35,488 bases of DNA from Anaerolineae bacterium (GCA_029262755.1 JAJCYU010000010.1:1-35488), one strand, 5' to 3'. Counted from the stretch's first letter, positions 1,579 to 32,721 are shown. Numbers and translations: made by a program. Notes: generated by a model from the sequence alone, not told the origin.

Positions 1579-1798
1579 ACCGCCGCAGAGTTAGGGTGTG
1601 TTGGGGGGATTTGCACGGGATTGGGGTACTCATTGGACGTTTGCGCGCCACGCGGCGCGCATTCGTACGTGTATGCCGATTCCGCGCAGCTTGCAGCAAT
1701 TCTTGGACGGTACCCGCAGCGCCGGCCGCCCCGCGCCGGTTCGCGGTCTGGATTACCCCACAATCGGATCGACAACCAACGAGGTGGAGGTCAGCGCA

Positions 1799-13300: not shown

Positions 13301-13668
13301 TCGCCGTTGCCGACCGACGTCCATGTACCGGTGAGCGGGGACGTCGGCGGACCCGACTGCATCGCGTCGGCGAGGCCCGCTGCACGGAGAATCGCGGGTG
13401 GCGCACCGAGTTCACGCGCGAATCGTGGAGCCGCGGATGTGAACAAAGTGAGGGCCGTCGCGCTGCCCGCCAGGAGCAAGCCTGCGATCCAAATCGCGCG
13501 CAATCCGTGCGTGTAGGCGGCCATCGACCTTCGGCGAGACGATTCGTCGCCGTGTGGCCGGGCGGAATCGCTGGCTACGGTCACGTCCGCGCTTGCGACG
13601 CGGACCGTTCCCGGCTCAATCGTGGGGAGCGACGGCTGGGGCCCTGCCGCGGATTGCGGTGGCGTCAC
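10384..13668 (-). CDS. Large exported beta-propeller protein (two-component-regulator-propeller-like repeats) with a Pro/Thr-rich C-terminal linker
   Basis: Repeated GLPSN.I..LA...DG.LW.AT..GL motifs. Hydrophobic segment IWIAGLLLAGSATALTLF. PATATPIASATPRVSATPT... linker. Ends RAMLPFVVRGR. Start is GTG 13668 (GGAG upstream) or ATG 13524. Confidence 0.8.
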   Translation of the reverse strand: MTPPQSAAGPQPSLPTIEPGTVRVASADVTVASDSARPHGDESSRRRSMAAYTHGLRAIWIAGLLLAGSATALTLFTSAAPRFARELGAPPAILRAAGLADAMQSGPPTSPLTGTWTSVGNGDRVASIVRDGEAIWSATVGGGLVRWHAGERASRQWLSPQDGLPSNDIRGLALGADGNLWLATAAGLVRFDTDAERVRDVLHPQTSPGMPASSVSAVALAADGSVWVGFEQIWDPARAHPLEDRGGPPGAFTPGGVARYYPVDGTWSDHAPAVVKDPAPSDPDLELRFEGVPSDNVTDLVIAEDGVLWVATRPYFLWDTASCSETPCLEDPSYWMLGGGGIAAMRDDVWRSWRPTRDADTSCYSENILDLAAGREGRVWAGTFGRGILMLSGYTQTLSCESGQAFYTRPRDPEQAGLRGNVVRAVSLDAQGRVWAAQGQGLDQGLGLARLDTKGTFGDSSSSLTPWNSDDEWQHYDIDNVPGATPLLVSALDVSQAVSIALGTTDELRGDGDGLRLMASDLITPTWNTRRTAERGLPSNQIKGIAHDTARNTTWFATARRGLARLEHDTGTWVHERAFIPQGIVARTTRASGASLERLQVNLPDMAAFEAALPGPERWIRVGDDATLYRVESYIPERSGLGPWLEVAPPLVRNAPLDAPIIRLSRGPAGDRASQIAVRGDGGVWAGAFKDRFQAAGLDGSCEPLVDCWFEGGVGGRDPETGAWRVYQPADSPLEQFDVATVEVDLAGRVWLGVSDLIASGIGMAVHDPATGGWEVHQISINMPAGNGVADLSVDPLKGDMWSAHLPVERRVQRPGQPDEIVNAGGGISRYDGEAWQSWTKRDSRSRLTAAGDWGVFYSVLADRANDRIWAGGWDGSPRTVHWPSGRGADAVVNWCPIDQCIPVGWAHESWEDEGLVSSLALDARGRVWAGTHRFNQGSIPALGGIKLWDGESWHELIPANTGLPTNQITILALEPELDAPEGGGGAAGGEGGAMWVGTWDRGAARYLDKPPEPATATPIASATPRVSATPTTAPATSTTPTATPTRGIPTPPSATPIEPTPVAPSPTPTLAARDCAADDPRCRAMLPFVVRGR

Positions 13669-13908
13669 GGTGCTCCGGCCTTTGGTTGGGGGAGAGCCGG
13701 CATTTGGCCGGTACCGGGGAGGATCGCGCAAGGCTAGCCGATCGGCGGAAGCGCGACAAAGCATTGAGGCGCCACTACAGAGGTCGTTGCGGGCTGAATT
13801 CGCGATACGCACGCTCCGGTGTCGCTCGGCTCCACAACCATTCCGCCGGCTTCCTTGCGCCAGAGCAATCCGCGCGAGGGCGCCGTCGAATTTCTGGTTG
13901 TCAGCGCG

Positions 13909-15687
13909 CTACTCTGCTCCGGAACCCGTGTCGTAGGCCGCCCAGCGGACCGGAAGCCACATTCGGGCGTACTCATGCTCCGTGCGGCGGTGCCAGCTCT
14001 CATCGGCTTTCTCGCTCAAGTAGTCCGGATCAAAGGGAAACCGTGGTTTCGGCCGTTCAAGGAACCATACCGTCGGCGCATGGTCGGCCAGGGCGCGCAG
14101 ACGCCTAGCCGCATCCTGTTCGGCTTCGCCGTAGCGCGGAATGCCAAGCCAGGTCTGCGTGCCGCCCGCGCGGCGATACTCGTAGGCGAAGGCGAATTGG
14201 ATCAACGGATCGTGCACGACGATAACGTCTGGTGCCGTGACCTCGCGGGCGAAGAAGTGTGCGGCTGCCCGCACATCGTCCTTGACATAATCCTCGCCGT
14301 GAAACTGGCGGGTGAGTTGCCGCGCTATGCTCCGCGATGCCGGCAATCCGATCCCAAGGGCCAACATGGCGCCGATCAGTATCGGCAATCGAGATGGCGC
14401 GGGCACGAAAGAGGACGCCCCAAGCGGGTTCGGGACCGGGGATGCCTGCGCCTCGGTAGAGCGACGTCGAGACGCGAACGTGCGGGTGCCCATACGGCCC
14501 AAGGCAGGGGCGAGCTGCGGGGGCAGCGAGAGGTTCCACAGCGCACCGATCCCCGCACCGGCGAGCAGGACGAAACCGGGGAACGCGACGAGCAGGTGGC
14601 GTGGCCCGTTGTAGATGGGGCGTAGCGACGAGAGCGCCGCGATCAGAACCAAGGGGAGCACGAGCATCGTCGTCGCCAGCGACGCGGCGCGACGCGCGGG
14701 TGGGTGCGCCCACACGGCCACGAGGCCCACCACCGCAAGCGCGACAAGCGGCCAGGAATCCGAGATCGAGTGGCGCAGCGTCGGCGATATGCCCACCGCG
14801 AAGGCATCCATAGCATGGCGCGCGATGGTCGCCCACGATACCGCTTCGAAGTCGATCTGCACGGGAGCCCGGAAGTACGACCATGCGCGGGGAGCCAGGG
14901 GCACGGCGAGCAGGGCGGCGACGGCTAGCAGCGCGGCCGACCGACGCAACCGTCGCGCCGTTGTTGCCGTCCCCGCCCGTCTCGCCACGGATTCGTCGTC
15001 CGCCGCAACACGGATCTCCCGTGCTGCGCTGTCCGGCCCAAGCCACGTCGAGGCGGCCAACCAAGAAACGTGGGCCGCGAGAGCCAGCAGCGCGAAGGCG
15101 TGGCTCGCGATCGAGATGCCCCACAGTCCGGTCCACGCCAGCCACCATCCTGTCCGCCGGCTGTCGGCCCGATCGGCCACATGGGCCAGCGCCCATGTCG
15201 TCGCCAGGATCGCCGCGATGAGGAGCGAATAGTTGCGCATCTCCTGGCTGTACCAGACGTGAATCGGCGACACCGTGAGCACGAGCGCCGCGCCGATGCC
15301 CGCTCGTCGCCCGAACCATGCGCGTCCCGCGCGCCACGCCAACGGCACACTCAACGCGCCGAGCAGCGCGCCGAGCCAGCGCAGCGCGAAGAGCCCTTCG
15401 CCGGCGAAGTGTCGTACGAGTGCCAGCAGGAGAAAATAGCCGGGCGGCGTCAGATCGCGAGTTGTTACACCGTCCACGACGATCGTATTAGCCAGAATGT
15501 CGCGCCAAGGCAGCGCCGCGCGGTACACGCTCAGGCCCTCGTCGCTCCAAAGCGATTGCGCCTCGATGCGGTATAGGCGGAGCGCGAAGGCAAGCGCGGT
15601 GAGCAACGCGATGAGCAGGGTCGCTGTCCATGTGACGTCCGGTCGACCCTCCTGGCGGGCGATCGCGGACGTTCGGGCGCCGCTCAC
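13909..15687 (-). CDS. Polytopic GT-C glycosyltransferase (GT39/GT83, PMT_2-like)
   Basis: TM1 followed by SLWSDEGLS (DE motif), PPGYFLLL, SPIHVWYSQEMRNYSL and many TM helices. GTG start overlaps the upstream TGA (GTGA). Confidence 0.85.
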   Translation of the reverse strand: MSGARTSAIARQEGRPDVTWTATLLIALLTALAFALRLYRIEAQSLWSDEGLSVYRAALPWRDILANTIVVDGVTTRDLTPPGYFLLLALVRHFAGEGLFALRWLGALLGALSVPLAWRAGRAWFGRRAGIGAALVLTVSPIHVWYSQEMRNYSLLIAAILATTWALAHVADRADSRRTGWWLAWTGLWGISIASHAFALLALAAHVSWLAASTWLGPDSAAREIRVAADDESVARRAGTATTARRLRRSAALLAVAALLAVPLAPRAWSYFRAPVQIDFEAVSWATIARHAMDAFAVGISPTLRHSISDSWPLVALAVVGLVAVWAHPPARRAASLATTMLVLPLVLIAALSSLRPIYNGPRHLLVAFPGFVLLAGAGIGALWNLSLPPQLAPALGRMGTRTFASRRRSTEAQASPVPNPLGASSFVPAPSRLPILIGAMLALGIGLPASRSIARQLTRQFHGEDYVKDDVRAAAHFFAREVTAPDVIVVHDPLIQFAFAYEYRRAGGTQTWLGIPRYGEAEQDAARRLRALADHAPTVWFLERPKPRFPFDPDYLSEKADESWHRRTEHEYARMWLPVRWAAYDTGSGAE

Positions 15688-18275
15688 GGCTTGCGACCCG
15701 CTACGGCGGCCGCTGACGCGCTCGCGGAATTTGGGCGCGTAGAGACGGGTTGTAGCCCCGATACGAGGGACGACCTGGGTTCAAGCAGGGGGAATGCGCC
15801 GGCCCGCCCCCCCGCAGTCCCGGTTCGATTGCGTCCCGACTCGCAGGAAGCAATCTCCACGGTTGCAGGTAGCCGGACTGCGTCGAGCACCGGAGATTCC
15901 GCGTCCACGACGACGTCCGCGCGCACGCCGTCCGACAGCCGGTACATGCCGGTGACGAGCGCGTATGCCCCGGGCGCAAGCGCCCCATCCAACGTGAGGG
16001 TTCTGCGATCGAGAACCTGCTCGAACGGAGACCACAGGGACGTCGGGTATGGGGCGCCGTTGGCATCGTGAACGGAGCCGTCCGCTTGGGCGAGCGGCGC
16101 CGCCGGTGCGCCGGGCCATCGGCGCAGATGCAGCAAGACCTGCAGATCGAGGGGAGGCGCTGCATTGCCCGCTCTCCAGAGCAGACGCACCTCGATCTCG
16201 CTTCCCGCGCAGACCGGGCCCTCCGGCAGCGCATAGCCTACGAGCGTGATCGCATCATCGCAGCCCTCGGCCGTCTCGGATCGCTCCACGACGCCCCGTG
16301 CTCCACGGCGTGCTCCCACGTCGTTGCCGCCGCGGTCGTCCGCGCAGGTTGCGCGCAGCGGTGTCATATCCAACCCCGGCGGATCGTCGAAGACGGTAAG
16401 TCCGGCTTCGATGGGTCGCTGTGTCCAGCCCAGTGCATCCGGTTCGACCTTGACACGGGTCACGAATCCCGCGCCGACGGCGTTGCCCGCGGTGTCCGTC
16501 GCGGGCAGTCGGTCGAGGGTCGCGGGGTCGAAGAGGCCGACGGCCACGTCGTATACGGCCGGTGCGCGCACGTCCTCGCCGATCTGGACGTCGACGGTCT
16601 CGCAGAAAGCGGCGCCGGGTTCCCACGCGCGTGTCGATGCGTTGCCGTCGGCGGGCACGGAGTGGTAGCTTGCGACGAGCGCGTCGTCGGGACCGACCAA
16701 GTGCACGAGCACATGGACGTCCTTCGGGGTCCTGCGCAGGGGGCGCCAACAGACGGCCACGCGCCAAGCCGAGTCTACGGAGACACGCGATGTCTCCGGG
16801 CGAACGCTCAGCAGCTCCGCCACATCCCCGATCCGCCAGCCGACGGGATCCGGCAGTGTCTCAGTTTGTTGGGCGGAAAGCGTTGTCGGTGGCAGGAGAG
16901 CCGGACGGATCGCGCTCGATGGCGCGGAAATGGACCACATAGCCAACGCGGTCGCCGCGAGCAGCGCCAGGCGCGCTCGGGGCAGCACTGCGTGCAGACC
17001 GAGCGCAAGCAACACCGAGATCGAACCCGCGGCCGGAAAGAGCAGGCGGCCCCAATGGGCGCGCACCACCTGCATCCAGCCCACCAACGCTACGAGGACC
17101 GCGACGGCGAATGCCGCGAGCATGAGGACGGTGCGGACTCGTGGATCGCGTAGCCAGGCCGCGGCGCGCGTGAGCAGTCCTTGCGAATCAGCTTGCATCC
17201 AGCCTGAGCGAATCGAACGCCACCCGCCGTAGACCAGCCCCATCCCCGCCAAGAGACACACGGCGAAGACGACGCGATACACGGGGTCCGGCCAGCGGAT
17301 CGTGCCCCAACCAAAGGCCGCCCAATAGCTGAGAAAGAGCAGCCACGGTTCACCGTCTTCAACGAGCTTCGCGAGATCGGCCGGCACCTCGCGCGCCCAC
17401 GGCATGGCCAGATGCAGTTCGCTGCCGATAAAGGTGCCGTAGCCGAGCAGGTTGCGCGCGTACCACCAGCCACCCACGAGGCCAGCCGCAGCCAAGACGA
17501 TCGCCCCAAGACGCAACGCCGAGCGCAAGGGGGCCGTGAGGCCGGTGGACAGCGCCGCTAGCGCGACGATCGGTACGAGGGCAAGGGCACTGCTCTTGGT
17601 CAGAAGCGCCGCGCCGAGGGCAAGGCCGCACAGCAACGCGTTGCGGTCGCCCGGCGCTCGTAGCAAGACCGCGGCGCGCCACAGCGCTACCGTGCACGCG
17701 GCGGCGGCGGTTGTGTCGTTGCTCGCGGCGCCGGATAGGAACGCGAATTGGGGCGTGAAGGCCAAGACGGCAGCGGCGGCAAGCGCGACGTCCAGGCGAT
17801 GAGGCACGATGGTGGCGTCGAGTTGATACGTCGCCCAGTCTGCCACGACGGCCATGAGCGCCGCGATGAGACGCGCCGCCAGGAGCCCGCGCATCAGAGG
17901 CGAGCCGAAGGGGGCGTCCCACGGTCCGTGCAAGGCGTAGTTGTGGTTGCGCGCCTCAAGCCCGACGCCGCCCCAGCGCCCCGGATTCTCAACGAATGCG
18001 GTGTCCATGTCCGAGGTAGAGAAGGGCGCGGATGCGATCGCCGCGAGCACGTAGTACAGCGGCGGTTGGCTGGCTTCTTGGTTGACCCAGGTCTCCAGCA
18101 TGTCAACGGTTGGAGGAGGCAGCCGCTGCTCCGTCTTAAGCCATGTGACATAGCCAAGATGCCAAGGCTCATCCGGCGCTTCCCATGCCGGGGTCAGCCA
18201 CGCGAATGTGAGTGCAAGGGCGCTTTGGACGAGCAAGACGAAGAACAGCCCGCGCCGCGCCCCGGCGTCACTCAC
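15684..18275 (-). CDS. Polytopic GT-C glycosyltransferase-like membrane protein (GT39/DUF2142-like) with two C-terminal extracytoplasmic beta domains
   Basis: TM1 followed by PAWEAPDEPWH.GY, QPPLYY, SNDT, ALLTKSS, WWYARNL..YG. The C-terminal part has two 'V.L.W......D..V..HL....W.PG/E....G.Y....G.Y' modules. GTG start at 18275 overlaps the HD gene TGA. Confidence 0.8.
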   Translation of the reverse strand: MSDAGARRGLFFVLLVQSALALTFAWLTPAWEAPDEPWHLGYVTWLKTEQRLPPPTVDMLETWVNQEASQPPLYYVLAAIASAPFSTSDMDTAFVENPGRWGGVGLEARNHNYALHGPWDAPFGSPLMRGLLAARLIAALMAVVADWATYQLDATIVPHRLDVALAAAAVLAFTPQFAFLSGAASNDTTAAAACTVALWRAAVLLRAPGDRNALLCGLALGAALLTKSSALALVPIVALAALSTGLTAPLRSALRLGAIVLAAAGLVGGWWYARNLLGYGTFIGSELHLAMPWAREVPADLAKLVEDGEPWLLFLSYWAAFGWGTIRWPDPVYRVVFAVCLLAGMGLVYGGWRSIRSGWMQADSQGLLTRAAAWLRDPRVRTVLMLAAFAVAVLVALVGWMQVVRAHWGRLLFPAAGSISVLLALGLHAVLPRARLALLAATALAMWSISAPSSAIRPALLPPTTLSAQQTETLPDPVGWRIGDVAELLSVRPETSRVSVDSAWRVAVCWRPLRRTPKDVHVLVHLVGPDDALVASYHSVPADGNASTRAWEPGAAFCETVDVQIGEDVRAPAVYDVAVGLFDPATLDRLPATDTAGNAVGAGFVTRVKVEPDALGWTQRPIEAGLTVFDDPPGLDMTPLRATCADDRGGNDVGARRGARGVVERSETAEGCDDAITLVGYALPEGPVCAGSEIEVRLLWRAGNAAPPLDLQVLLHLRRWPGAPAAPLAQADGSVHDANGAPYPTSLWSPFEQVLDRRTLTLDGALAPGAYALVTGMYRLSDGVRADVVVDAESPVLDAVRLPATVEIASCESGRNRTGTAGGRAGAFPLLEPRSSLVSGLQPVSTRPNSASASAAAVAGRKP

Positions 18276-19069
18276 GCGCCGATACCGTCCCCAGACACGC
18301 CCTCTGCACCGGGCGCGTCGTCCATCGGACCCGGCCGATCTCCTTGGATGTCGCTCTGCGGTGCCGACTCGAGAAAGCCCCGCTGTTCGGCTACGTCGAT
18401 CAGCGCCGTCGTCACCGCTCCGAGGCTCCCTGAGCCCCGTGCTACATCGCGGTTGGCCAGACGTACGCGGTCGGCCGTGACGCCATAGTGGCGCCACTGG
18501 CTGCCGGCCGTGAGCAGGTTGTGCAACAAAGGCTGAATCCGGTCCACGGCGCCGGCAAAGCGAGCCTCCGGACTCTCCTTGGCCTCAAACTCGTCCCAGA
18601 GCGCGCGCAGCTCAGCGCCTTGATCGGCGGGCAAGAGGCCGAAGATGCGCTCGGCGGCCGCCGTCTCCCTGGCTTCCTTGTCCTGGTAGCCGACCGTGTC
18701 GTACAAGAAGGTGTCGCCGGCATCGATCTCGACGAGGTCGTGCACGAGCAACATGCGCAGCACGCGGCCGGCATCGAGCGAAGAGCCTTGCGCATCCGAG
18801 GCGTCGTTCGGCGCTCCCTCTGCTGCCGCGCCGCTGCCATGCGCGCCGGCATGTTCGAGTAGCACCATCGCCATCAAGGCCTGATGCCACGAATGCTCGG
18901 CGCTGTTCTCGCGACGGGAACCGTCCACGAGCAAGTTCCGTCGCTGGATCGACTTCAGCCGATCGATCTCCACCACGAAGCGCAGTTGATCCCGCAATCG
19001 AGGGTCCTCGACGAGGAGCTGGAGCACTTCATCCACGTCGGGTGCGTGGAGCCGCGGCTCAGCCTTCAC
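18272..19069 (-). CDS. HD-domain phosphohydrolase (HD_3, YfbR/HDDC2-like putative 5'-deoxynucleotidase)
   Basis: EIDRLKSIQRR, RRENSAEHSWH, MLLVHDLVEIDAGD, LWDEFEA.ESPEARFA.AVDR.QP. Confidence 0.88.
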   Translation of the reverse strand: MKAEPRLHAPDVDEVLQLLVEDPRLRDQLRFVVEIDRLKSIQRRNLLVDGSRRENSAEHSWHQALMAMVLLEHAGAHGSGAAAEGAPNDASDAQGSSLDAGRVLRMLLVHDLVEIDAGDTFLYDTVGYQDKEARETAAAERIFGLLPADQGAELRALWDEFEAKESPEARFAGAVDRIQPLLHNLLTAGSQWRHYGVTADRVRLANRDVARGSGSLGAVTTALIDVAEQRGFLESAPQSDIQGDRPGPMDDAPGAEGVSGDGIGA

Positions 19070-20759
19070 GCTTGATCGCCTGCTCGACGAGGGCGACGAT
19101 CTCCGACTCCATGCGCTCCGCGGTCGCTAGGATCGCGTGTCCTTCCGCGAGCGCGTTCTCCGCCCAGGTGCGATCGCGTAGGCCCGGCGTGTTGATCTGG
19201 ACGTTGAGCCACGCTCCGCGTACCGCGGTACGTGCGCAGAGCGCGCCGACACCCGCATCCGATAGCGACGATGGAAGCCCGCTGCGCGCCATGGCGTCCG
19301 CGACGTCCATCGAGGCGAGGGCTTCGCGCATGACTGCCAGCGGCACTTCCGTGGCGCCCTTGATACCGGCTTCGATCGCAAGGCTTCGCGCTTCCTGTTC
19401 GGCGTCGGTTCCCTTAGGTAGGCGATAGGCGGCCATCAGGGTGTCGAAGGAGCGCGTGTCCTCATCGACGAGTCGCAGCAGCGTCGTCGCGTGTCCCATG
19501 CCCCGTTCGGCCCATTCAGAATACGTCTGCCACAGCTCGTCCCAGCCCCGCTTGTGTGCGGAGAGGTTGGCAACCATCGTGGCCATCGCGGCGCCGAATG
19601 CACCCACGGCGGCCGCGACGGAACCGCCACCTGGAGTGGGCGTCTCGCCCGCCGCCGTGGTGGTGAAGTCCGCGACGCTCAAATCGATCAACCGGCTCAT
19701 GGCAGGGTCGCGCAGCCGCCACTCGATAATGCGCTCGGCCGGGTCGAAGGGCGCAAGCTCGTCCAAGCCCATCGAGCGGACCGCGATGCGCACCAATTCC
19801 TCATCAGGCACACCGAGACTGCGCTCCTGGCGCGTGAGGAAGTAGCGACCGGCCTCCACCATTGCGGCGAGGGGCACCATGCCGACCAGTTCCGAGCCCG
19901 TGACCCGCATACCCCGGGCCGCGGCGCGCTCCCTGCCTGCTTCAAAGGCCTCATGGAGGGGCGTGCGCTGCAAATCCGTCAGGTTCAACGACACCTGGGC
20001 GATCCCGTATTCCTCGATGAACCACCCAATGCCCTTGACACCTTGTAGCAGGCCGGCCTCGCGCACGGCCTCACCCGCAGTATCGCGCACGATGTCGCCG
20101 GATGCGCCATTCGTGCGCACAACCCGCCCGGCTTCGCGCAAGTCGAAGGCGACGGCGTTGGCACGGCGTGTGGAGGTCGTGTTGAGGTTGAGGTTGTACG
20201 CGACCAAGAACGGTCGTGCTCCGATCACGGTCGCGCCTGCTGTTGGGTGCGGACGGGCGGGGCCGAAGTCGGGGAGCCACTCGGGATCAGCGAGCTTGTC
20301 GGCCAGCCCCTCGAACTCGCCTGCGCGGATCACGGACAGATTGCGTCGCTTGGGCTGGGTCGCAGCCTCTTCGTAGAGGAAGACCGGGATCTCGAGCTCC
20401 TGTCCGACACGCTCCCCGAGTCGGTGAGCCAGCTGGGCGACTTCCGCCATCGTGATGCCGCGAATCGGGACGAGCGGGCAGACATCCGTAGCACCCATGC
20501 GCGGGTGCTCGCCCGCGTGCCGGCGCATATCGATGGTGCGGCTCGCCTCCGCAATGCCCTGAAACGCGGCTTCCACGATGGCTTCCGGCGCGCCGACGAT
20601 CGTCACCACGGTGCGGTGGGTCGCGCGCCCCGGATCGACATTGAGCAGCGTAATGCCGTCGACGGCGGCCATGGCCGAGGTGATACGGCTGATGGCCGCG
20701 GCATCGCGGCCCTCGCTGAAATTGGGCACGCATTCCACAAGAGCGTGGTTTTGGGGCAT
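19059..20759 (-). CDS. ftcD: Bifunctional glutamate formimidoyltransferase / formimidoyltetrahydrofolate cyclodeaminase
   Basis: N-terminal LVECVPNFSEGR, HRTV.T, IDMRRHAGEHPRMGATDVCPLVP, GARPFLVAYN. C-terminal cyclodeaminase domain with PTPGGGSVAA, LVDEDT, SDAGVGA, NVQIN. GGAG upstream of ATG 20759. Confidence 0.93.
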   Translation of the reverse strand: MPQNHALVECVPNFSEGRDAAAISRITSAMAAVDGITLLNVDPGRATHRTVVTIVGAPEAIVEAAFQGIAEASRTIDMRRHAGEHPRMGATDVCPLVPIRGITMAEVAQLAHRLGERVGQELEIPVFLYEEAATQPKRRNLSVIRAGEFEGLADKLADPEWLPDFGPARPHPTAGATVIGARPFLVAYNLNLNTTSTRRANAVAFDLREAGRVVRTNGASGDIVRDTAGEAVREAGLLQGVKGIGWFIEEYGIAQVSLNLTDLQRTPLHEAFEAGRERAAARGMRVTGSELVGMVPLAAMVEAGRYFLTRQERSLGVPDEELVRIAVRSMGLDELAPFDPAERIIEWRLRDPAMSRLIDLSVADFTTTAAGETPTPGGGSVAAAVGAFGAAMATMVANLSAHKRGWDELWQTYSEWAERGMGHATTLLRLVDEDTRSFDTLMAAYRLPKGTDAEQEARSLAIEAGIKGATEVPLAVMREALASMDVADAMARSGLPSSLSDAGVGALCARTAVRGAWLNVQINTPGLRDRTWAENALAEGHAILATAERMESEIVALVEQAIKREG

Positions 20760-20941
20760 GAAGGGGGGCTCCACGGGGGATACGAATAACACGGTTCGAT
20801 CGCGCGAATGCTAGGCAGCCGGCGTACGACGGGCAAGGTTCCCACTGCGTGATGATCCGTGCCGCCGCTACAATCTCCCGCGGACCCGTCTGATTGGACC
20901 AACACCTATTGCGCAGACACGTACTCAGGGAGTCGAACCTC

Positions 20942-21586
20942 ATGCGAAGACAGTGGATGATATTCGGGCTCGCGGCGCTACTCGGCGCCTGCGGTAGCCC
21001 CCAGGCCCCGGAGTCGGCGAACGCGCCCGACCCCGTGGTTGTGGAAGAAGCCGCGGAAGCGGCCGACGGCATGGCGGAGATGGCCGTTGACGCAGCTGCG
21101 GAAGCGGCGGATGCAGCGGAAGCCGCCGGCGAAGCCGCTGCCGACGCAGCGGACGCGGCAGCGGCTGCCGTAGACGCAGCAGAGGACGCGGACGACGCAG
21201 CGGAGGCCGCGGCCGACGACGCGGACGGCGAAGACGGCATGGCCTCGGAGTCCGATGCGGCTCCGATGGGCTTTACTGCCACCGATCCTTCGACCGTCGT
21301 TCTGGCATCGGGCGGCCCGCAGTTTGTGAAGTTCTACGCCGAGTGGTGACCGACCTGCAACGCAATGCTGCCCGTCGTGCACGGGCTTGAAGAGCAGTTC
21401 GGCGACCAGATCCAGTTTACGTACATCGATATCGATGATCCGGCGAGCGCTGAGATCAAGAGCGCGCTTGGGTACGCCCATCAGCCCGAGTACTACTTGC
21501 TCGATGGGGAGGGCAACCAAGTAGGGGATTGGTCCGGTTTCGTCCAGGAAGACGTCCTGGCCGCGGCCTTCAACAGCGTGCAGTAA
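20942..21586 (+). CDS. Selenocysteine-containing thioredoxin-fold lipoprotein (UxxC; in-frame TGA at 21347-21349 read as Sec), ~214 aa
   Basis: ORFs 20894-21349 and 21365-21586 are in the same frame and are joined by TGA CCG ACC TGC AAC GCA, giving PQFVKFYAEW-U-PTC-NAMLPVVHGLEEQFGDQIQFTYIDID...QPEYYLLDGEG, a Trx fold with Sec at the nucleophilic Cys position. Lipobox LLGAC. AGGGAG RBS before ATG 20942. Confidence 0.85.
21350..21402 (+). promoter_or_regulatory. Putative bacterial SECIS element
   Basis: Immediately 3' of the UGA: lower stem CCGACCTGC (21350-21358)/GCAGTTCGG (21394-21402) with one mismatch, and apical stem GCCCGT (21370-21375)/ACGGGC (21381-21386) with loop CGTGC. The loop has G at its second position and lies 26 nt from the UGA. 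Confidence 0.7.
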
Positions 21587-21620
21587 GTCCCGCGATTGTT
21601 CGGGGCACGGGTCCGAATCA

Positions 21621-21666
21621 GCAAACGGGGGGTCGCTTCGGCGGCCCCTCGTTTGCGTTCGTTTTC
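21621..21666 (+). terminator. Intrinsic terminator after the selenoprotein gene, probably shared with the convergent MFS gene
   Basis: GCAAACGGGGGGTCGC-TTCG-GCGGCCCCTCGTTTGC (16-bp stem with G-U pairs, UUCG loop) followed by GTTCGTTTT. Confidence 0.75.
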
Positions 21667-21714
21667 CGGGCCGCGCGCGACGGCCGAATTGGTGAGATTG
21701 TTGACGGTCGAGCC

Positions 21715-23148
21715 CTAACCGGCAGAGCTCGCTGCCAGGAATCGTGCGTCCTCCTCCCGCGCCACCCGCTGACCCTCTTCGATATCAACCCGGCTAAGCA
21801 CGGCCATGCCGCCCAGGAAGAACACGATGAGCGCAAAGATCGCGTTGCGGGGGTCGCCCGTCGTTTGGCGCACGAATGCGAACACAAGCGGGCCGAGGAT
21901 GCCTGCGAACTTCGCACTGACGCTAAAGAATCCGAAGAACTCCGACGAGCGCGCGGCGGGGGCCATCGAGGAGAACACGGAGCGGCTGATCGCCTGCGTG
22001 CCGCCTTGGACGGTGGCGATCAAGAAGGCCATCACCCAAAACTGCCAGGCGTACTGAAGGAAGTACGCGCCGACGGAGATCGCGGCGTAGACGCTTAGCC
22101 CGAGGTAGAGTGAACGCTTCGCACCGATCCGTTGAGCGAGCAAGCCGAAGGCGAACGCAAAGGGGATACCCGCGAATTGGGTAAGGACCAGCGCGCCGAT
22201 CAGGTCACCCTGGCCAAGTCCGAGCGAGCGGCCGTAGATCGTCGCCATCTTGACGATCGTGCCGATCCCGTCCGCGTAGAGCCAGAACGCGGCCAAGAAG
22301 AGCAGCAGCTGGCGGTACTCCTTCAACGTGCGAAAGGTATCCGCAAGCCTTGTGAACCCGGCGGTGAGCGGGTTGGGCCGCGCCGCGTGATTGGAAGGGA
22401 CTTCGTCGGCCTCTAGGGCGCGCGGTGGTTCCGGCACGAGGCGGAACAACGGCAGCGAGAACAGCGCCCACCACACCGCAACCGATACAAGCGCCCACTG
22501 TGTCGCGCTCGTCTGGCTCGCGAAACCGAAGCGCTCGGGCGCGAGAATCCACCCTAGGTTCAGCAAGAGCAGAAGTCCGCCGCCCATGTAGCCCAGCGCG
22601 TAGCCGGAGGACGAGAGTTGGTCCGCGCGATCCTTCGCAGTCACGTGCGGCAAGAGCGCATCGTAGAAGACGTTGGCTCCCGCGAAGCCGACGAACGCCA
22701 CGATGAAGGCAGCGGACGCGAACAGCCAATCGCCGCGCTCAACCATGAACAAGGACGCGGTAGCGATCACGCCGAGCACGACGAAGAAGCCGAGAAAGCG
22801 CTTCTTGGCGCCCATGAAGTCGGCTACGGCCCCCAAGATCGGCGCAAGAATCGCCACGATCGCGAGGCCGATGGACTGGGTGTAGGACCAGTACAGGTCG
22901 GCGTTGTTGACGCCCGCGCCATCCAGGAGGTTCACTCCGGCGAAATCACGGTAGAAGATGGGGAATACCGCGGCCAGAATGACCGTCGCGAACGCGGAGT
23001 TCGCCCAGTCATATGCGGCCCATGCACGGGCTTGGCGCGAGCCGAGGCCCAGCGTGTCGAGCAACGAGGCGCCGCGCGATTGCATCGCATCGGCAGCGGC
23101 CTCCTTGTCCGGGCTCGTTTCCGTCGGTGTTGGTTGGGGCGGGGACAT
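21715..23148 (-). CDS. MFS transporter, UMF1/Atg22-like family
   Basis: AWAAYDWANSAF, APILGAVAD, NVFYDALLP, SSSGYALGYMGG, DGIGTI, QGGTQAISRS.F...P..RSSEFFGFF; about 12 TM segments. AAGGA RBS before ATG 23148. Confidence 0.9.
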   Translation of the reverse strand: MSPPQPTPTETSPDKEAAADAMQSRGASLLDTLGLGSRQARAWAAYDWANSAFATVILAAVFPIFYRDFAGVNLLDGAGVNNADLYWSYTQSIGLAIVAILAPILGAVADFMGAKKRFLGFFVVLGVIATASLFMVERGDWLFASAAFIVAFVGFAGANVFYDALLPHVTAKDRADQLSSSGYALGYMGGGLLLLLNLGWILAPERFGFASQTSATQWALVSVAVWWALFSLPLFRLVPEPPRALEADEVPSNHAARPNPLTAGFTRLADTFRTLKEYRQLLLFLAAFWLYADGIGTIVKMATIYGRSLGLGQGDLIGALVLTQFAGIPFAFAFGLLAQRIGAKRSLYLGLSVYAAISVGAYFLQYAWQFWVMAFLIATVQGGTQAISRSVFSSMAPAARSSEFFGFFSVSAKFAGILGPLVFAFVRQTTGDPRNAIFALIVFFLGGMAVLSRVDIEEGQRVAREEDARFLAASSAG

Positions 23149-23331
23149 CGGCTTTTCCTTGCGGGATGTGCGGCTTTCAACCATCGTGGAGAATGCTTGC
23201 TCCTCGTCTACCGCGCCAGAGACCGCGTAGCACGGTGCTGCCGGAGACGAAGGCGGTACCGGTTGGGGGGCCGGCGCATCACGTCGCTCAAACCTTCCCC
23301 GTAGCCGCGTCCGTATGACGATGAGGTTCCC

Positions 23332-24282
23332 ATGGCCAAGCCCCACCGGTCGAACGAAACTGCCGCTCTGCACGTGCTCGGCATCGCCCAGGACGCCGGT
23401 GTGCCGCACATCGGCTGCGACGGACCGTGTTGTGCGGAGGCTTGGACGGACCCCGCACTCCACCGACGTGCCGCCTGCGCAGCGATCGTGATCCGGGATT
23501 CCGGAAATGGCTTGGTCCTGCGACGATGGCTGATCGATGCGACACCGGACATTCGCTGGCAGTTGCGCGCCCTTGACCTTGCGGCGCCCGCGAATCCGGA
23601 CATGCCCGGGCCGGGACTAGACGGCATCTTGCTCACACACGCTCACCTGGGCCACGTGGGCGGTCTTGGCCAGCTCGGACGCGAAGCCCTCGGCGCAAGC
23701 GCAGTGCCGGTGTTCGCGATGCCCCGCCTTTTCGAAGCACTGCGCTCGAACGCTCCTTGGTCGCGCCTGCTCGAGGACGGCCGCATCGTCCTGGAACCGC
23801 TCTACGCGGGCAGGGCGGTCCAGCTTTCGGACTCGGTGCGGTTGACACCGGTTCCCGTGCTCCACCGTACCGCGCTTTCCGAGACGGTTGCCTTCTGCGT
23901 GGAAGGGGATCAGGCGCAGGTATTGTGGCTTCCCGATGTGGATCGATGGGAGCCGGCGCCAGGGGCCGATGGCTCAGGCGCGGCGCCGGCAACGGTATTC
24001 GACCTGAGCGCATGGACGGAAACCGTCGACCGCGCCTATGTCGATGGCTCCTTCTTCGATGAGCAAGAGCTGCCCGGCCGCGATCGGGCGACGGTTCCGC
24101 ACCCCACGATGCGGGATACGCTCGCGCTCGCGTCCGCGTGGCCCTCCCAGAGGCGACGCCGCCTCCGCTTCATCCACCTCAACCACACCAATCCCGCGCT
24201 CCGACCGGAGTCCGAGGCCCGGGCCGAGCTTCGAGCGGCCGGCGTCGACGTCGCCGACGAGGGGGAGGTCATGCCGTTGTAG
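23332..24282 (+). CDS. MBL-fold metallo-hydrolase, PqqB-like
   Basis: VLGIAQDAGVPHIGC..PCC, LIDATPDIRWQL, ILLTHAHLGHVGGL, VDGSFF...ELPGRD...VPHP, FIHLNHTNP. Confidence 0.85.
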   Translation: MAKPHRSNETAALHVLGIAQDAGVPHIGCDGPCCAEAWTDPALHRRAACAAIVIRDSGNGLVLRRWLIDATPDIRWQLRALDLAAPANPDMPGPGLDGILLTHAHLGHVGGLGQLGREALGASAVPVFAMPRLFEALRSNAPWSRLLEDGRIVLEPLYAGRAVQLSDSVRLTPVPVLHRTALSETVAFCVEGDQAQVLWLPDVDRWEPAPGADGSGAAPATVFDLSAWTETVDRAYVDGSFFDEQELPGRDRATVPHPTMRDTLALASAWPSQRRRRLRFIHLNHTNPALRPESEARAELRAAGVDVADEGEVMPL

Positions 24283-25671: not shown

Positions 25672-28587
25672 CTACGAGCGCTCCGTCCAAGGGATGAAGA
25701 TCTCGTGATCGCCGCCGGTGTCGGGGGTCGGCTCGATCGGAGGTGGCGCTCGGGTCGGCGTCGGGCTAGGCACGGGACTTGGCGTCGGCTCCGGCGAGGC
25801 ATCGGGGTCGAAGGGAGCCGCGCCGAACGATAGCCCGAGCTCATAGCTGCCGATCGCAGAGTCCTGGCTTAGGGTATGCAGATAGTAGTCCCCGGGAATC
25901 AACAGCGCGTTGACCTCCGCCGGCAGACCGATCGATATGGGTCCCTGGCCCTCGAGTAGAGCGCGCCTGTGGTTCAGCAGCTCTACGTAGGGCCGAAACA
26001 GTCCGGCCGAGGCTGTCGCCGTCAGGGTGCCCATCTGGGCCACGGTGACGCGATAGACATCGACTGGTGGCGCGGCCGCCGCCGGCACGCCGACCCCGCC
26101 GGGGACTTCGGGCCAAGTACAATCGCCCGACTCCAGGGCTCCTTGCGCGGTGGCGTTCTTGTCGATGGGCATCACCATGCACGACGTGGTGTCCGCCGCG
26201 GGCGTGAAGACCATCTGCAGCTGATAGTCTCCCGTGAACTGGGTGTCGGAGACGGACTCCACCTGCAGTTCGTACTCCGCGGCCGTCGTGAAGAAGCCGA
26301 GGGACGCGGTCGAATCCAGGAAGTTCTGATCGTAGTCGTCCCCTACGAGCGCGCCCGTTGCGGGGTTGAACAACCGCAATCGCGGGAAGAAGGAGCCGGA
26401 AGAAACCTGAATGCCCAAGGTCCCCCGGGAAGGCGCCGTGACCCGGTACCGGTCGACCGGCGACCAGACGGCGCGCAGTGGATCGAGGTCATTGGCCGTG
26501 CACTCGAATCCGTCGAGCTCCGTGTCGAGCGCGGTGCCGGATTGCAATACGTTGACGGCGCACTCCGTCGGTGCCGGCCGCGGGCTAAAGGCCGTGGTGA
26601 GCTGGTACGGTCCGTACTCGCCGGCAATGGCGTTGGTCGGGAGCACCAGATAGTCGCCGGCGGGCAGCACGGCTCGGATCTCCGAGTTGACGTCTCCCCC
26701 GGCGGGATCCACGTCATCGTTCAGCGTGGCCTTCGCGGCGATGTTGAGGGCTGCGTTGGGGAAGGGGCCCGCGATGAGTACCAAGAACGTGTCGATGTCG
26801 GTCGAGCGCATCGAGATCAAGACCTCGCCCCGCTCGTCCAAGTGAAGCAAGAACGGATCGACCGGATCCGGGGAACCGCCGAAGTAGTACTCGCTGAGCG
26901 TGCAGTCCGCCGCGGTCAATTCCTCCGCGGACGTCCCGTTTAGCGGGAGTTGCCGCACGTTGCACGCGGCCACACGGGACGCGAAGCTGAGCGACAGCGT
27001 GTAGTCCCCTAGGTTCTCGACGGATTGGATCCCCAGCCGATAGGCGCCCGGTGGCAGGCTCAACGAGACCGGCGGCGACTCCGCCTGACCGATGAAGACC
27101 TGGTTGTTGCGGTCCATGAGCCACAAGACCGGCTGCCAGCCGACAGCGTCCACGTTGACGTCCAACGTGCCGTCTTGCGGGATCACGATGTCGAAGAGAT
27201 CCATGGGCATACGGACGATGATTCCGTTGTTCAGATAGCCGTCGAAGCAGTCCGCGTCATTCAACGTGCCTGCCGTCGTGCTGTTGGCTTCGACGAGCGT
27301 GGCATCGCAGGCGGCGCCGACAGGAGCGAAGCTCGTGTCGACGGTGATGGCACCGGTGCCGCGCTTTGCGCCAAGCACCAGGAGACGGTAGCGACCCGCC
27401 GGCACCGGCAACGCGAACGAGGTAGTGCCGGGCGCCTGGTCCTCCGTGTCGTTGATGTCGCTCGAAAGCGTTACGTTGTCGGCATTGATCAGCGCGTGAC
27501 GCGGCTCGAGCGCCGTGCTGGTCACGCTGCCGGACAGCATGCCCGCCTCGGGCAGCACGATTTCGTAGACGAGTGCCGGGTTGTCGAGCATCACCAGGGG
27601 CAACCAGTCGTATACGCGGCAGCCGCCAGCGGGAACGTCGCGTGTCGAGCCCGCACCGGGATCGAGCGCCAAGGCTTCGCAAGCGGGCTCGGACACGGGA
27701 CGAATCGTGGGCTCAACCTGGTAGTCGCCGCCGACATCCGCCGCATCGGACAAGGACGTCACCAAGATCACGTAGCTGCCGGCCGGCAGCGTCGTGTCGA
27801 TCGACGCAGGGCCACCGTCGACGCTAAAGCCGTCGGTGATGGGCGCATATCCGGCATCGTGCACGGAAACGTACATGTCGAACGCGGCCTGGACCTGGAG
27901 GCTGACCTCGCTGCGCTCTGGCAACGTCATACGATATTGGTCGACGAAGGAAACGACGGTCGTGTTGGTGACCTGACCCCAGCGGCAATCCGGCACGGCC
28001 AAGCTCTCGGTAAAGGACTCGCCCGCGGGCAACGGCACCTGCTCACAGTTGGTTTCGGTTTGCGCAATGGCCGCTTGGGAGGTCGTGCCCGTTGGGCGTT
28101 CCTGGCCGTAGGCCCGCTGTGCAGCGGTGCGGCGTGCTCGCGAAGCCGCAACGATCGGGTCTTGCGGAGCCAAGTTCACGCCGGCCTCGCTCTTGGAAGG
28201 CCGAAGAGACGACGCGGACGCAGGCGCCCGTCCTGGCGAAGCCGCAAGTGACCCGCCTTCCGCGATTGCCGGCTGGCGTCCATGAACGGACGGGCCCGCA
28301 CCGGAGGATGACAAGACGACGGGCACGCGCACCGTCGGCTGTCGTGACAGCACAGAGGCGGCGCTGTTCTGGGGCGCCGTGGCGAGCAGAAAGGGAGCCA
28401 TGGCCAGCGAAGCGGCGATGGCACGCCAAGCATGGCGCGTTAACCGAGACGCGGGCCGGACGAGGGCGGGTAGAGTCGGGGGCGTGGCCGATAGCCCGCA
28501 ATCCGGGTCGACCGTTGCTTCGGGCACTTGCGTGCGCGAGGCACGTAGCAAGGCTCGGACGATCTTGCGCTGGGGAGCGAAGCGCAT
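25672..28587 (-). CDS. Large exported protein with six tandem PPC-like (pre-peptidase C-terminal) beta-sandwich domains
   Basis: Six ~120-aa units, each opening with C-x19-C followed by D.Y/F...., a D/P.L.L core and LP.G.Y.....G.Y.L. Signal-like hydrophobic stretch AIAASLAMAPFLLA. PEPTPSPVPSPTPT linker. Ends HEIFIPWTERS. AGGAGG RBS before ATG 28587. Confidence 0.82.
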   Translation of the reverse strand: MRFAPQRKIVRALLRASRTQVPEATVDPDCGLSATPPTLPALVRPASRLTRHAWRAIAASLAMAPFLLATAPQNSAASVLSRQPTVRVPVVLSSSGAGPSVHGRQPAIAEGGSLAASPGRAPASASSLRPSKSEAGVNLAPQDPIVAASRARRTAAQRAYGQERPTGTTSQAAIAQTETNCEQVPLPAGESFTESLAVPDCRWGQVTNTTVVSFVDQYRMTLPERSEVSLQVQAAFDMYVSVHDAGYAPITDGFSVDGGPASIDTTLPAGSYVILVTSLSDAADVGGDYQVEPTIRPVSEPACEALALDPGAGSTRDVPAGGCRVYDWLPLVMLDNPALVYEIVLPEAGMLSGSVTSTALEPRHALINADNVTLSSDINDTEDQAPGTTSFALPVPAGRYRLLVLGAKRGTGAITVDTSFAPVGAACDATLVEANSTTAGTLNDADCFDGYLNNGIIVRMPMDLFDIVIPQDGTLDVNVDAVGWQPVLWLMDRNNQVFIGQAESPPVSLSLPPGAYRLGIQSVENLGDYTLSLSFASRVAACNVRQLPLNGTSAEELTAADCTLSEYYFGGSPDPVDPFLLHLDERGEVLISMRSTDIDTFLVLIAGPFPNAALNIAAKATLNDDVDPAGGDVNSEIRAVLPAGDYLVLPTNAIAGEYGPYQLTTAFSPRPAPTECAVNVLQSGTALDTELDGFECTANDLDPLRAVWSPVDRYRVTAPSRGTLGIQVSSGSFFPRLRLFNPATGALVGDDYDQNFLDSTASLGFFTTAAEYELQVESVSDTQFTGDYQLQMVFTPAADTTSCMVMPIDKNATAQGALESGDCTWPEVPGGVGVPAAAAPPVDVYRVTVAQMGTLTATASAGLFRPYVELLNHRRALLEGQGPISIGLPAEVNALLIPGDYYLHTLSQDSAIGSYELGLSFGAAPFDPDASPEPTPSPVPSPTPTRAPPPIEPTPDTGGDHEIFIPWTERS

Positions 28588-28685
28588 GGGGGTCCCTCCT
28601 GGGTTGGGCCGCACGCGCGTGGTGCGCTAGCGGACGGGGGCGCACGTCGGGCCGCGAGCCGGCGCGACGGATGGGTACGGTTGAA

Positions 28686-31283: not shown

Positions 31284-31485
31284 GTGCGGACCATCCCGAA
31301 AGGCGGTGACATCCGGCCCGCTTAGCGCGGTCGATGTCCGGTTGGGTGCGGGTTGCGCCCGGGGGAGGGCATAGGCATGAGGATCACGCTACGCGCGCGG
31401 GGTCGCACGATCACATAATACTACAGTAACCGAAACGGGTGAACCGTCGAGTTCCCAAGGTTTCTCTAGGGAACCGCAGGGAATC

Positions 31486-32241
31486 TCAACCCAGCGGCTG
31501 CGCGAGCTCAGGGGCGGGCACGGCAACTCCGTGGCGTCGTTGCTCCACGATCAGGCCGTCGGCAATCACCAGCGTCCGCGCAACGCGCGCGGCCAGATCG
31601 TCATCGTGCGTCACCACGACGATGGTCTTGCCATCCGCCACCAATTCCTCGAAGAGGGTCTCGACGTCTTCCGCCGTGCGTGAATCGAGGTTGCCGGTGG
31701 GCTCGTCTGCAAGGAGGATCGGCGGGTCGTTGGCCAGGGAGCGGGCGATGGCGGCGCGTTGCTGCTGGCCACCCGAGATGGCCGACGGTAGCTTGTGCGC
31801 CTGGTCGGCCATGTCGACGCGTTCCAGGAGCGCCATCGCCCGCCCAGGCCGCTCTTTGCTCGGCCACGTATTGCAGAAGTCCATGGGCAGCATGACGTTC
31901 TCGATGACGGTCAGCGTGGGAAGGAGTTGGAAGAATTGGAACACGATCCCAAGCGATCGTCCGCGCCAGGCGGCAAGCTTTCCCTCACGCAGCGCATGCA
32001 CCCCGGTTCCGGCGACAACAACCTCGCCCTCCGTCGGTCGATCGATGCCGGCGATCATGTTGATGAGCGTCGACTTGCCGCTGCCGGACTTGCCGATCAC
32101 GGCCACGAACTCACCCGGCGCGACCCGAAGGTCTACACCGCGAAGGGCGTGGAACACGCCGGCTTCGCTTTCGAAGGTCTTGATCACGCCGCGCATCTCG
32201 ATCAAGGTGTCCGAAGGCGCATTCGCCGTTTCGCTGCGCAT
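31486..32241 (-). CDS. ABC transporter ATP-binding protein (LolD/MacB-type)
   Basis: Walker [11 protein letters not shown]-loop IVFQFFQL, signature ISGGQQQR, Walker [14 protein letters not shown]-loop VVTHD. AGGAG RBS. Confidence 0.95.
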
Positions 32242-32291
32242 CGATCGCTCCTGGGTCCACGGCCGCTCGATTCGCAGCGGCGGCGGCCCGG

Positions 32292-32340
32292 ATCATAGCA
32301 GCGCGCCGCGGGTCCTCGACGTGCCGGCGCGTGCTAGAAT
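32292..32340. promoter_or_regulatory. Back-to-back extended -10 promoters
   Basis: Minus strand TGCTATGAT (32300-32292) upstream of the ABC ATPase; plus strand TGCTAGAAT (32332-32340), 6 nt before the zincin ATG. Confidence 0.55.
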
Positions 32341-32346
32341 CGCGCC

Positions 32347-32721
32347 ATGCACCTGGATCGCGCCGCTTTCGAGCGCCTCGTCGACGACGTCATGAACGAC
32401 CTGCCGGACTCGATCAGCCGTCACGTGAGCAACGTCATCGTGGTGGTCGCGAACTGGCCGACGCGCGCACAGCGTCGCGACGCGGGGCTCGCCGATGGAG
32501 AAGAGCTTCTGGGTCTGTACGAGGGCACGCCGCTCACCGCCCGCGATAGCGCCTACGATCTGGCCGCACCCGATCGGATCACGATCTTTCGCGGCCCGCT
32601 CATTGCAGCATGTCGGCATCAGGAGGAGCTTCGCGCGGAGGTCCGGCGTACGGTGCTCCATGAGCTCGCCCACCACTTCGGCATCGACGACGATCGGCTC
32701 GAGGCACTGGGCGCTTATTAA
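32347..32721 (+). CDS. Zincin-like metallopeptidase family protein (Zincin_1/DUF1025)
   Basis: FE.LV...[42 protein letters not shown] (HExxH). Confidence 0.9.

Follow-up and report, generated by a model that had tools for sequence, protein, structure and literature searches.

A UGA codon inside a thioredoxin-lipoprotein gene of an Anaerolineae bacterium is almost certainly read as selenocysteine

The stretch of DNA analysed here (the window) is a 35,488-nucleotide sequence from an Anaerolineae bacterium (GCA_029262755.1, JAJCYU010000010.1:1-35488), which is contig C10 of a genome of 5.06 Mb in 428 contigs with 84% completeness (G000 in the coordinates below). Positions 20942-21586 on its plus strand hold a reading frame with a single internal TGA at 21347-21349, flanked on the 5' side by TTC TAC GCC GAG TGG (FYAEW) and on the 3' side by CCG ACC TGC (PTC). 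In a standard listing of open reading frames (ORFs) the region appears as two pieces in the same frame, 20894..21349 (151 aa) and 21365..21586 (73 aa). When TGA is translated as selenocysteine (Sec, U), 20942-21586 encodes 214 residues with the one TGA as U136, in the local sequence FYAEW-U-PTC, which places it at the first-Cys position of the thioredoxin (Trx) WCxxC motif. A first-pass annotation of the window had proposed this placement of the apparent stop, a frame that continues beyond it into the C-terminal half of a Trx, and a gene that standard callers would split; each of these points has been confirmed. The apparent stop is almost certainly read as Sec, and 20942-21586 is very probably one gene, for a 214-residue exported, lipid-anchored Sec-thioredoxin that would be decoded via SelB and would act on extracytoplasmic disulfides. 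The features of the locus are collected in Table 1.

The thioredoxin profile PF00085 matches residues 120-209, across the TGA, with an E value of 2.3e-10 and 40.8 bits (cut-off 23.5). An AlphaFold2 model of residues 116-210, built from a 17-row alignment, has a mean predicted local distance difference test score (pLDDT) of 91.7 and a predicted template modelling score of 0.83. Its elements follow in the order strand, helix, strand, helix, strand, strand, helix, with U at model residue 21, just ahead of the helix at 22-38. The best Foldseek matches of the model are classical thioredoxins (TMq 0.82-0.86, root-mean-square deviation 1.4-2.0 Å). The invariant columns of the 17-sequence alignment include U21, C24 and P67, the last of which (Pro182) we take to be the cis-Pro of the thioredoxin fold. 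The TrxA equivalog TIGR01068 gave 38.9 bits against a cut-off of 96.8, and Redoxin (PF08534, 24.8 bits against 26.6) and dsbE (TIGR00385, 24.3 against 123.15) also stayed below their cut-offs. At E <= 0.01 the window protein matched neither NF041057 nor any other of the NCBIfam selenoprotein-specific models. It is a Trx-family selenoprotein and not a TrxA ortholog. Mechanical ORF calling would divide the region into two genes, one for an acidic lipoprotein that ends at 21349 and one for a 73-residue protein that starts from the ATG at 21365. The thioredoxin profile and the confidently predicted fold are instead continuous across the TGA (residues 120-209, pLDDT 91.7), and neither half alone would give the whole fold, as the break has the first strand on one side and the U-x-x-C motif on the other; two separate genes are, in our view, highly improbable.

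To find relatives, 61 genomes (the own one and 60 from relatives) were searched in all six frames; stop codons were translated through, and no retrieval pattern was used. Among the 15 matches outside the own genome at E <= 1.4e-11, exactly one TGA is present in 11 and none in four, and the orthologs with one TGA span residues 1-213. In tblastn, a TGA aligns to U136 in 16 matches from 15 loci, and other matches carry Cys there. The TGA stands in motifs that include W*PTC, W*LSC, W*MAC, W*ISC, W*VVC, W*GTC, W*VSC, W*PHC and L*STC, among others, and the four closer stop-free matches have Cys at the U136 position, in WCPEC, WCGSC, WCSAC and WCEIC (G040, G037, G050 and G006). A pattern scan of one genome per species gave 214 stretches, 194 of them confirmed relatives, and the best 80 were kept; by their record titles, nearly all of these are Anaerolineae, Anaerolineales or Chloroflexota metagenome-assembled genomes (MAGs). 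The codon at the U136 position in the best 80 of the 194 relatives is TGA in 71, TGT in eight and TGC in one, and the 17 rows from the pattern-free search gave the same result as the pattern-retrieved set. The frame downstream of the TGA is open and conserved in the relatives, with the resolving Cys (C24) and P67 invariant in the 17-sequence alignment, and the x-x dipeptide, P-T in the window protein, is highly variable among them.

Two readings in which the TGA is an accident bear on these counts. The first is a recent nonsense mutation, by which TGC or TGT became TGA in a Cys-thioredoxin lipoprotein gene that now yields only a 135-residue fragment. Cys forms do exist (nine of the 80 loci, and the four genomes named above), and in a near-length search of a 5.8-billion-protein collection the window gene is present only as a 135-aa product that ends at the UGA. 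The second of the two matches in that search is a 181-aa JGI protein with 57% identity and WCPTC...PVVHG, in which Cys and Sec are indistinguishable because U is displayed as C. Against the mutation, the TGA is common to 71 of the 80 loci and to 11 of the 15 best relatives' matches, in many families of the class. Beyond the TGA the frame has remained open and conserved, the resolving Cys and the cis-Pro being invariant, and the TGA is followed by a hairpin that is specific to Sec forms and carries compensatory changes, as described below. We consider a nonsense mutation scarcely probable.

The second such reading is an assembly or sequencing error with a true codon of TGC or TGT, which might be suspected in a fragmented metagenome-type genome (428 contigs, 84% complete). 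An independent contig assembly of run X1 shows 0 differences over 20872-21700 at a depth of ~7, although it should be mentioned that X1 may be the same sample as the window's source assembly. Since the same TGA is found in 71 other, separately assembled genomes, an error of this kind is implausible, and we give it almost no weight. X2, a marine plankton metagenome of another study, covers only 21092-21273 in the acidic low-complexity linker, where a 165-base contig matches 21109-21273 with no difference, the UGA and the rest of the gene being uncovered. No RNA run turned up among the sequencing runs with matching sequence.

Some of the relatives are unusual. At L038:1564-1575 (G017) and at L044 (G041:C25), on the strand of the match, two TGAs are present, and U-P-Q-U and U-A-P-U replace U-x-x-C. 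The two loci belong to different families, and each has a lipobox and the same single hairpin GCCCAUCGUGGAUGGGC; their products may be diselenide-forming thioredoxin lipoproteins. The Cys form at L052 (CBFDCK010000018.1, codon TGT) retains P-L-V-H-G and a partly degraded hairpin CCGCUUGUGCAUGGG, and looks like a recent switch from Sec to Cys. At L032:1537 and L032:1925 (G060:C42) there are tandem genes for Sec-thioredoxin lipoproteins, with W-U-P-I-C and T-U-P-Y-C and one hairpin each; paired matches were also found on G051:C37 and G036:C4. The sole retrieved locus without a Chloroflexota title, L116 (JBAQEN010000350.1, 2006 bases), is filed as a Methylococcaceae MAG, and this filing of a 2-kb contig may be a binning error.

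A selenocysteine insertion sequence (SECIS) in the form of a two-tier hairpin, starting at the base after the UGA, had also been proposed. Such a hairpin is the minimum-energy fold of 21347-21410 (-22.2 kcal/mol), of which only the apical tier (21370-21386) is conserved. In the 17 related sequences, pairing of the lower tiers amounts to only 56.5% and 64.7% of cells, which does not support a conserved two-tier SECIS directly after the UGA. With columns numbered from the U of the UGA, 21370-21386 corresponds to columns 24-40 and the apical helix to 24-29/35-40, so that the start of the hairpin lies 23 nt past the UGA, or 22 nt past it where the five invariant pairs are considered. The Sec forms all carry this same hairpin at a fixed distance from the UGA. 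In the 17-row alignment 95.1% of the 102 cells of the apical helix are paired; sliding the partners lowers this to 10.8-48.0%, and 0 of 500 shuffles attained the observed score for pairing or for covariation. The five inner pairs were independently predicted by the RNAalifold consensus. Pair 28-36 is A-U in 10 of the 17 rows, G-C in seven and broken in none.

Pooling both locus sets and removing identical RNA rows left 81 Sec rows and 17 Cys rows, the latter made up of nine close orthologs (43-56% identity), four more distant relatives (31-44%) and four generic thioredoxin-like proteins. Each of the 81 distinct Sec rows keeps all five core pairs intact, and none of the 17 Cys rows does. Pair 28-36 is G-C in 22 of the pooled Sec rows and A-U in 59, without broken or wobble intermediates. 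The loop is CGUGN in 78 of the 81 Sec rows (CGUGC 70, CGUGG 6, CGUGU 1, CGUGA 1) and GGUUC (2) or AGUUC (1) in the others. The stem is encoded within P-[VI]-V-[HD]-G codons whose synonymous sites are fixed in the Sec forms: all 81 Sec rows have GGG as the Gly codon, and the third base of the Pro codon is C in 78 and U in three, with pairing kept in both cases. In the 17 Cys rows this third base is G in 10, C in four, U in two and A in one, and the Gly is lost too. At locus L109 (DAOUAB010000267.1), about 22 nt after the TGA, the peptide Q-P-T-V-R-R replaces P-I-V-H-G, and the hairpin is preserved as GCCUAC-CGUGC-GUAGGC via double changes at two pairs. The fixed synonymous sites, the hairpin kept at L109 despite a changed peptide and the loss of Gly in the Cys forms argue for selection on the RNA itself. 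The comparison supports as candidate SECIS a short apical hairpin, specific to Sec forms and with compensatory changes.

The machinery for Sec insertion, the presence of which had been put forward as a check, is all found in the own genome. The tRNA-Sec gene at C193:5304-5397 scores 70.3 bits (cut-off 47) and is called tRNA-SeC(tca) by ARAGORN, and SelA (507.7 bits), SelB (344.5 bits) and SelD (368.1 bits) all lie above their curated cut-offs. The selD gene has one internal TGA, at G000:C109:4961 in the motif SSCAGUASK, with a 6-bp hairpin 30-46 nt downstream that has the CGUGC loop of the thioredoxin gene and sits 6 nt further from its UGA than the thioredoxin-gene hairpin; SelD of this genome is itself a selenoprotein. 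The own genome was also scanned for open frames in which a CGUGN-loop hairpin lies 20-40 nt downstream of a TGA, which gave 51 matches, mostly noise-like, with no null computed. Besides the window gene and selD, three of the matches have the UGA at the known Sec position of a catalogued family. It is noted that the sharing of the loop among scan matches is partly circular, because the scan required the loop; this does not apply to SelD, which was found by its family model.

The three genes, each with a CGUGN-loop hairpin, are as follows. One encodes a DUF3179 protein with WUPLC (G000:C150:8488-9774, minus strand; PF11376, 289.6 bits), and another a DsbG-like selenolipoprotein with LUPYC (G000:C267:5586-6521, plus strand), the best match of which is NF041057 at 111.2 bits, below the cut-off of 190, and which has an acidic Ala/Asp/Gly tether much like that of the window protein. 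The third encodes a rhodanese with LYCAU (G000:C306:33649-34296, plus strand; best match NF041203 at 89.3 bits, below the cut-off of 115).

These results bear on a further alternative, in which the UGA is read without SelB or Sec, by near-cognate insertion of Cys or Trp or through a reassigned code, and the product is an ordinary Cys or Trp protein. Under selenium scarcity UGA-Sec codons can be misread at a low level in other organisms. What speaks against such readthrough is a complete Sec system in the same genome together with four other Sec-family genes that have UGA at known Sec positions, a SECIS-type hairpin conserved only in the UGA forms, and ordinary ORFs in the window that end with TGA; we regard it as very unlikely.

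The N-terminus of the window protein, MRRQWMIFGLAALLGAC, starts with basic residues, which are followed by a hydrophobic stretch and by the lipobox LLGAC with Cys17. The closest ortholog begins MRRIW...LPLAAC (G001), and its MRRIW, beside MRRQW in the window protein, backs the start at 20942. By a simple regular expression, a comparable lipobox signal is present in 67 of 88 Sec-form rows (rows not deduplicated); seven of the remaining rows run off their contigs and 14 were not recognised, some because the expression is too strict. Lgt and LspA are each encoded twice in the own genome, with matches at 233.6 and 73.7 bits for Lgt and at 132.5 and 98.8 bits for LspA. From these sequence features the window protein would be exported and lipid-anchored, in line with the first-pass annotation, which had read the gene as one for an exported, lipid-anchored Trx-fold UxxC selenoprotein. 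The long acidic tether that it had described is present here, at residues 18-107 with the composition ADEG. Its acidity is lineage-specific, since most relatives have Pro/Thr/Ala/Ser-rich linkers, of 9-114 residues.

A number of observations weigh against the reading of 20942-21586 as a gene for a Sec-thioredoxin of this kind. The single-sequence fold of 21347-21410 gave z = -1.22, with 18 of 200 shuffles folding at least as well, so that folding, proposed earlier as a check, did not set the hairpin apart from shuffled sequence, and the significance of the hairpin comes from the comparison with relatives; a scan of the whole window against Rfam at gathering thresholds matched no family. One of the two retrieval patterns contained the hairpin-encoding P[VI]VHG, so that the 71 of 80 loci with TGA and part of the 81 of 81 intact hairpins are enriched by selection. 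As kin, the relatives do not count as independent, and the two sets have six loci in common (RNA rows were deduplicated, lipobox rows were not). The co-occurrence of tRNA-Sec with the UGA form is not discriminating, because tRNA-Sec was found in 49 of the 61 genomes, Cys-form genomes among them. In G016 (84% complete) the TGA form is present, yet no tRNA-Sec was found, and the tRNA-Sec match in G052 reaches only 50.1 bits. No CcdA, Msr or cytochrome-maturation gene adjoins the window gene, and the redoxin-lgt gene pair of relatives described below is not adjacent to it in the own genome. Selenium incorporation, export and lipidation of the window protein are predictions from sequence, and its redox partner, redox direction and physiological substrate are what we infer.

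Table 1. Features of the Sec-thioredoxin locus, in coordinates of the window
Feature	Position	Strand	Basis
Shine-Dalgarno-like GGGAG, 9 nt 5' of the ATG	20928..20932	+	read from the sequence
Selenoprotein coding sequence, 214 aa plus TAA stop (21584-21586), one in-frame UGA	20942..21586	+	read-through frame; Pfam Thioredoxin across the UGA; orthologs
Predicted lipoprotein signal peptide MRRQWMIFGLAALLGAC, lipobox L-G-A-C, putatively lipidated Cys17 (codon 20990-20992)	20942..20992	+	sequence
Acidic low-complexity Ala/Asp/Glu/Gly tether, residues 18-107	20993..21262	+	sequence, composition tally
Thioredoxin-fold domain, residues 108-214	21263..21583	+	PF00085, AlphaFold2 model, structural matches
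UGA for Sec (U136), attacking residue of U-P-T-C	21347..21349	+	aligned TGA/Cys in relatives
Resolving Cys139 (TGC) of U-x-x-C	21356..21358	+	invariant column C24, 17-sequence alignment (second TGA of G017 displayed as C)
Candidate SECIS apical hairpin GCCCGU-CGUGC-ACGGGC (stem 21370-21375/21381-21386, loop 21376-21380), in P-V-V-H-G codons	21370..21386	+	conserved pairs, RNAalifold
Pro182 codon, presumed thioredoxin cis-proline position	21485..21487	+	invariant column P67
Terminator-like 16-bp G+C-rich hairpin with T-rich tail, 35 nt past the stop	21621..21666	+	sole such site in 20600-21900

Shuffled sequences contained 1.0 +/- 0.9 terminator-like sites, so the terminator call in Table 1 is weakly supported. 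A 331-aa Ala/Ser-rich ORF at 20287-21282 on the minus strand shares DNA with the linker region; most probably it is no gene but an artefact of the G+C-rich low-complexity sequence. The thioredoxin gene stands alone on the plus strand, between genes for a formiminotransferase-cyclodeaminase (19059-20792, minus strand) and an MFS/Atg22-like transporter (21715-23463, minus strand). Elsewhere in the window, large ORFs at 1598-5590 (plus strand), 10384-13812 and 13909-18497 (both minus strand) bear a Big_6 bacterial Ig domain, Reg_prop propeller repeats and two PMT_2-type glycosyltransferases, and the ORFs at 18-1511, 25672-28614 and 31439-32395 have no Pfam match. The first-pass annotation had suggested that the protein might serve surface proteins encoded nearby. 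No link to them was found: none of the window neighbours (the cyclodeaminase, the transporter, glycosyltransferases and others) is a thiol-redox partner, and only the upstream formiminotransferase-cyclodeaminase recurs, in three of 40 sampled loci; the suggestion has been dropped.

Among relatives, the sole frequent neighbours are a divergent gene for a TlpA-like AhpC-TSA/Redoxin protein and then lgt, which immediately precede the thioredoxin gene and lie on the other strand (e.g. L066:673-1982; loci L048-L127). The best 80 loci were all searched by tblastn; 65 of them reach >=1.8 kb upstream, and of these 26 have the TlpA-like redoxin there, 25 together with lgt. In the own genome, redoxin paralogs are located on C149, C193, C267 and C316, and DsbD_TM/CcdA homologs on C370, C256 and C100. 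The paralog at G000:C193:5627-6001 is ~230 nt from the tRNA-Sec gene, and that at G000:C267:3445-3819 is ~1.8 kb from the gene for the DsbG-like selenolipoprotein.

We propose that during translation SelB with Sec-tRNA(Sec) would bind the apical hairpin GCCCGU-CGUGC-ACGGGC and deliver Sec at the UGA in place of termination. The protein would then be exported, lipidated by Lgt and cleaved by LspA, and the flexible tether would keep its thioredoxin domain at the outer surface of the cytoplasmic membrane. At that site Sec136 could attack extracytoplasmic proteins at disulfides, or at sulfur in a sulfenic or other oxidised state, forming a selenenylsulfide with Cys139. From the redoxin and lgt neighbours in relatives and the DsbD_TM/CcdA homologs in the genome, we infer a tethered extracytoplasmic thiol-disulfide oxidoreductase. 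A role as reductase or isomerase of the ResA/TlpA/Etrx type, recharged via a CcdA/DsbD-type membrane protein, is in our judgement the most likely, with about an even chance; that of a disulfide-forming oxidase is less likely than this, and we think it improbable.

Anaerolineae are abundant uncultured bacteria, and the practical value of the finding is for annotation: because gene callers cut at the UGA, a redox enzyme widespread in Anaerolineae would be largely missing from protein databases and metabolic reconstructions. The family is a clean natural data set on what bacterial SelB needs of a SECIS: it comprises 81 Sec forms beside 17 Cys forms, shows compensatory changes and has, at one locus, a changed peptide with the hairpin kept. 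The finding adds evidence that Chloroflexota place several selenoproteins outside the cytoplasm, and it leaves known selenoprotein biology unchanged. Tentatively, and with more doubt than confidence, one may go further and see here an Anaerolineae-wide subfamily of surface-tethered minimal thioredoxins outside the curated selenoprotein models. Such a subfamily would use Sec by default, have its own minimal SECIS (5-bp stem, CGUGN loop, P-[VI]-V-[HD]-G codons) and diselenide-capable U-x-x-U variants, and be coupled to lgt and the TlpA-like redoxin, the whole forming a Chloroflexota-specific selenium-dependent extracytoplasmic redox pathway.

The prototype Trx selenoprotein is reportedly that of Treponema denticola, on which Kim et al. 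worked in 2015. Thioredoxin (Trx), PF00085, is given with UxxC among the experimentally verified prokaryotic selenoproteins in Table 1 of a 2026 review (PMC13188914), and that table gives PF00085 only as UxxC, a point to be compared with the U-x-x-U relatives. It also includes further Trx-fold UxxC families, namely thiol:disulfide interchange protein, DsbA-like, DsbG-like (NF041057), thiol-disulfide isomerase-like and Redoxin, and the same families are given, in the parts consulted, by the earlier surveys PMC9312934 and PMC1794560. A full-text literature search found no description of a lipoprotein-anchored PF00085 Sec-thioredoxin of Chloroflexota, which may be listed in other parts or the supplements of PMC13188914. 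Within the text covered, 'Chloroflex', 'lipoprotein' and 'anaerolin' occur 0 times in PMC13188914, and 'Chloroflex', 'lipoprotein' and 'signal peptide' 0 times in PMC9312934.

The window protein resembles the PF00085 UxxC Trx selenoproteins in a domain match above cut-off, a U-x-x-C at the start of helix 1, a classical fold and the existence of Cys homologs. It differs from them in its lipoprotein signal and long tether, and in having P-T or, across the family, a variable dipeptide in place of G-P. With that signal and tether, the protein should act outside the cytoplasm and not with thioredoxin reductase. NF041057, the 'Rcas_1661 family thioredoxin-like (seleno)lipoprotein' (DsbG-like), is likewise a Chloroflexota-associated, lipid-anchored, Trx-fold U-x-x-C selenoprotein. 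The window protein, however, has a minimal thioredoxin domain of ~107 residues, whereas in the NF041057 type the domain is of the DsbA/DsbG kind (Thioredoxin_4/DSBA) and carries a helical insert.

In monoderm bacteria, thioredoxin-family proteins that lie outside the cytoplasm include ResA and StoA of Bacillus and Etrx1 and Etrx2 of Streptococcus pneumoniae, to which TlpA of Bradyrhizobium may be added. The window protein is like these in its predicted membrane-tethered extracytoplasmic Trx fold, in the CcdA/DsbD-type partners in its genome and in the TlpA-like redoxin neighbour of its relatives. All of these are Cys proteins of the TlpA/Redoxin branch, whereas the window protein would attack with Sec and its Redoxin match is below the cut-off. 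In E. coli fdhF the SECIS is a hairpin within the reading frame, shortly downstream of the UGA, and SelB binds its apical loop. Set beside this type in general outline and not by sequence comparison, the hairpin described here is also within the ORF, at a fixed short distance after the UGA and with a conserved G-U in the apical loop; it differs in being conserved over only 5-6 bp and a 5-nt loop, with the lower stem out of register. Trx-fold UxxC selenoproteins, including a Chloroflexota selenolipoprotein family, are already catalogued, and the window gene adds a fairly ordinary further case to them.

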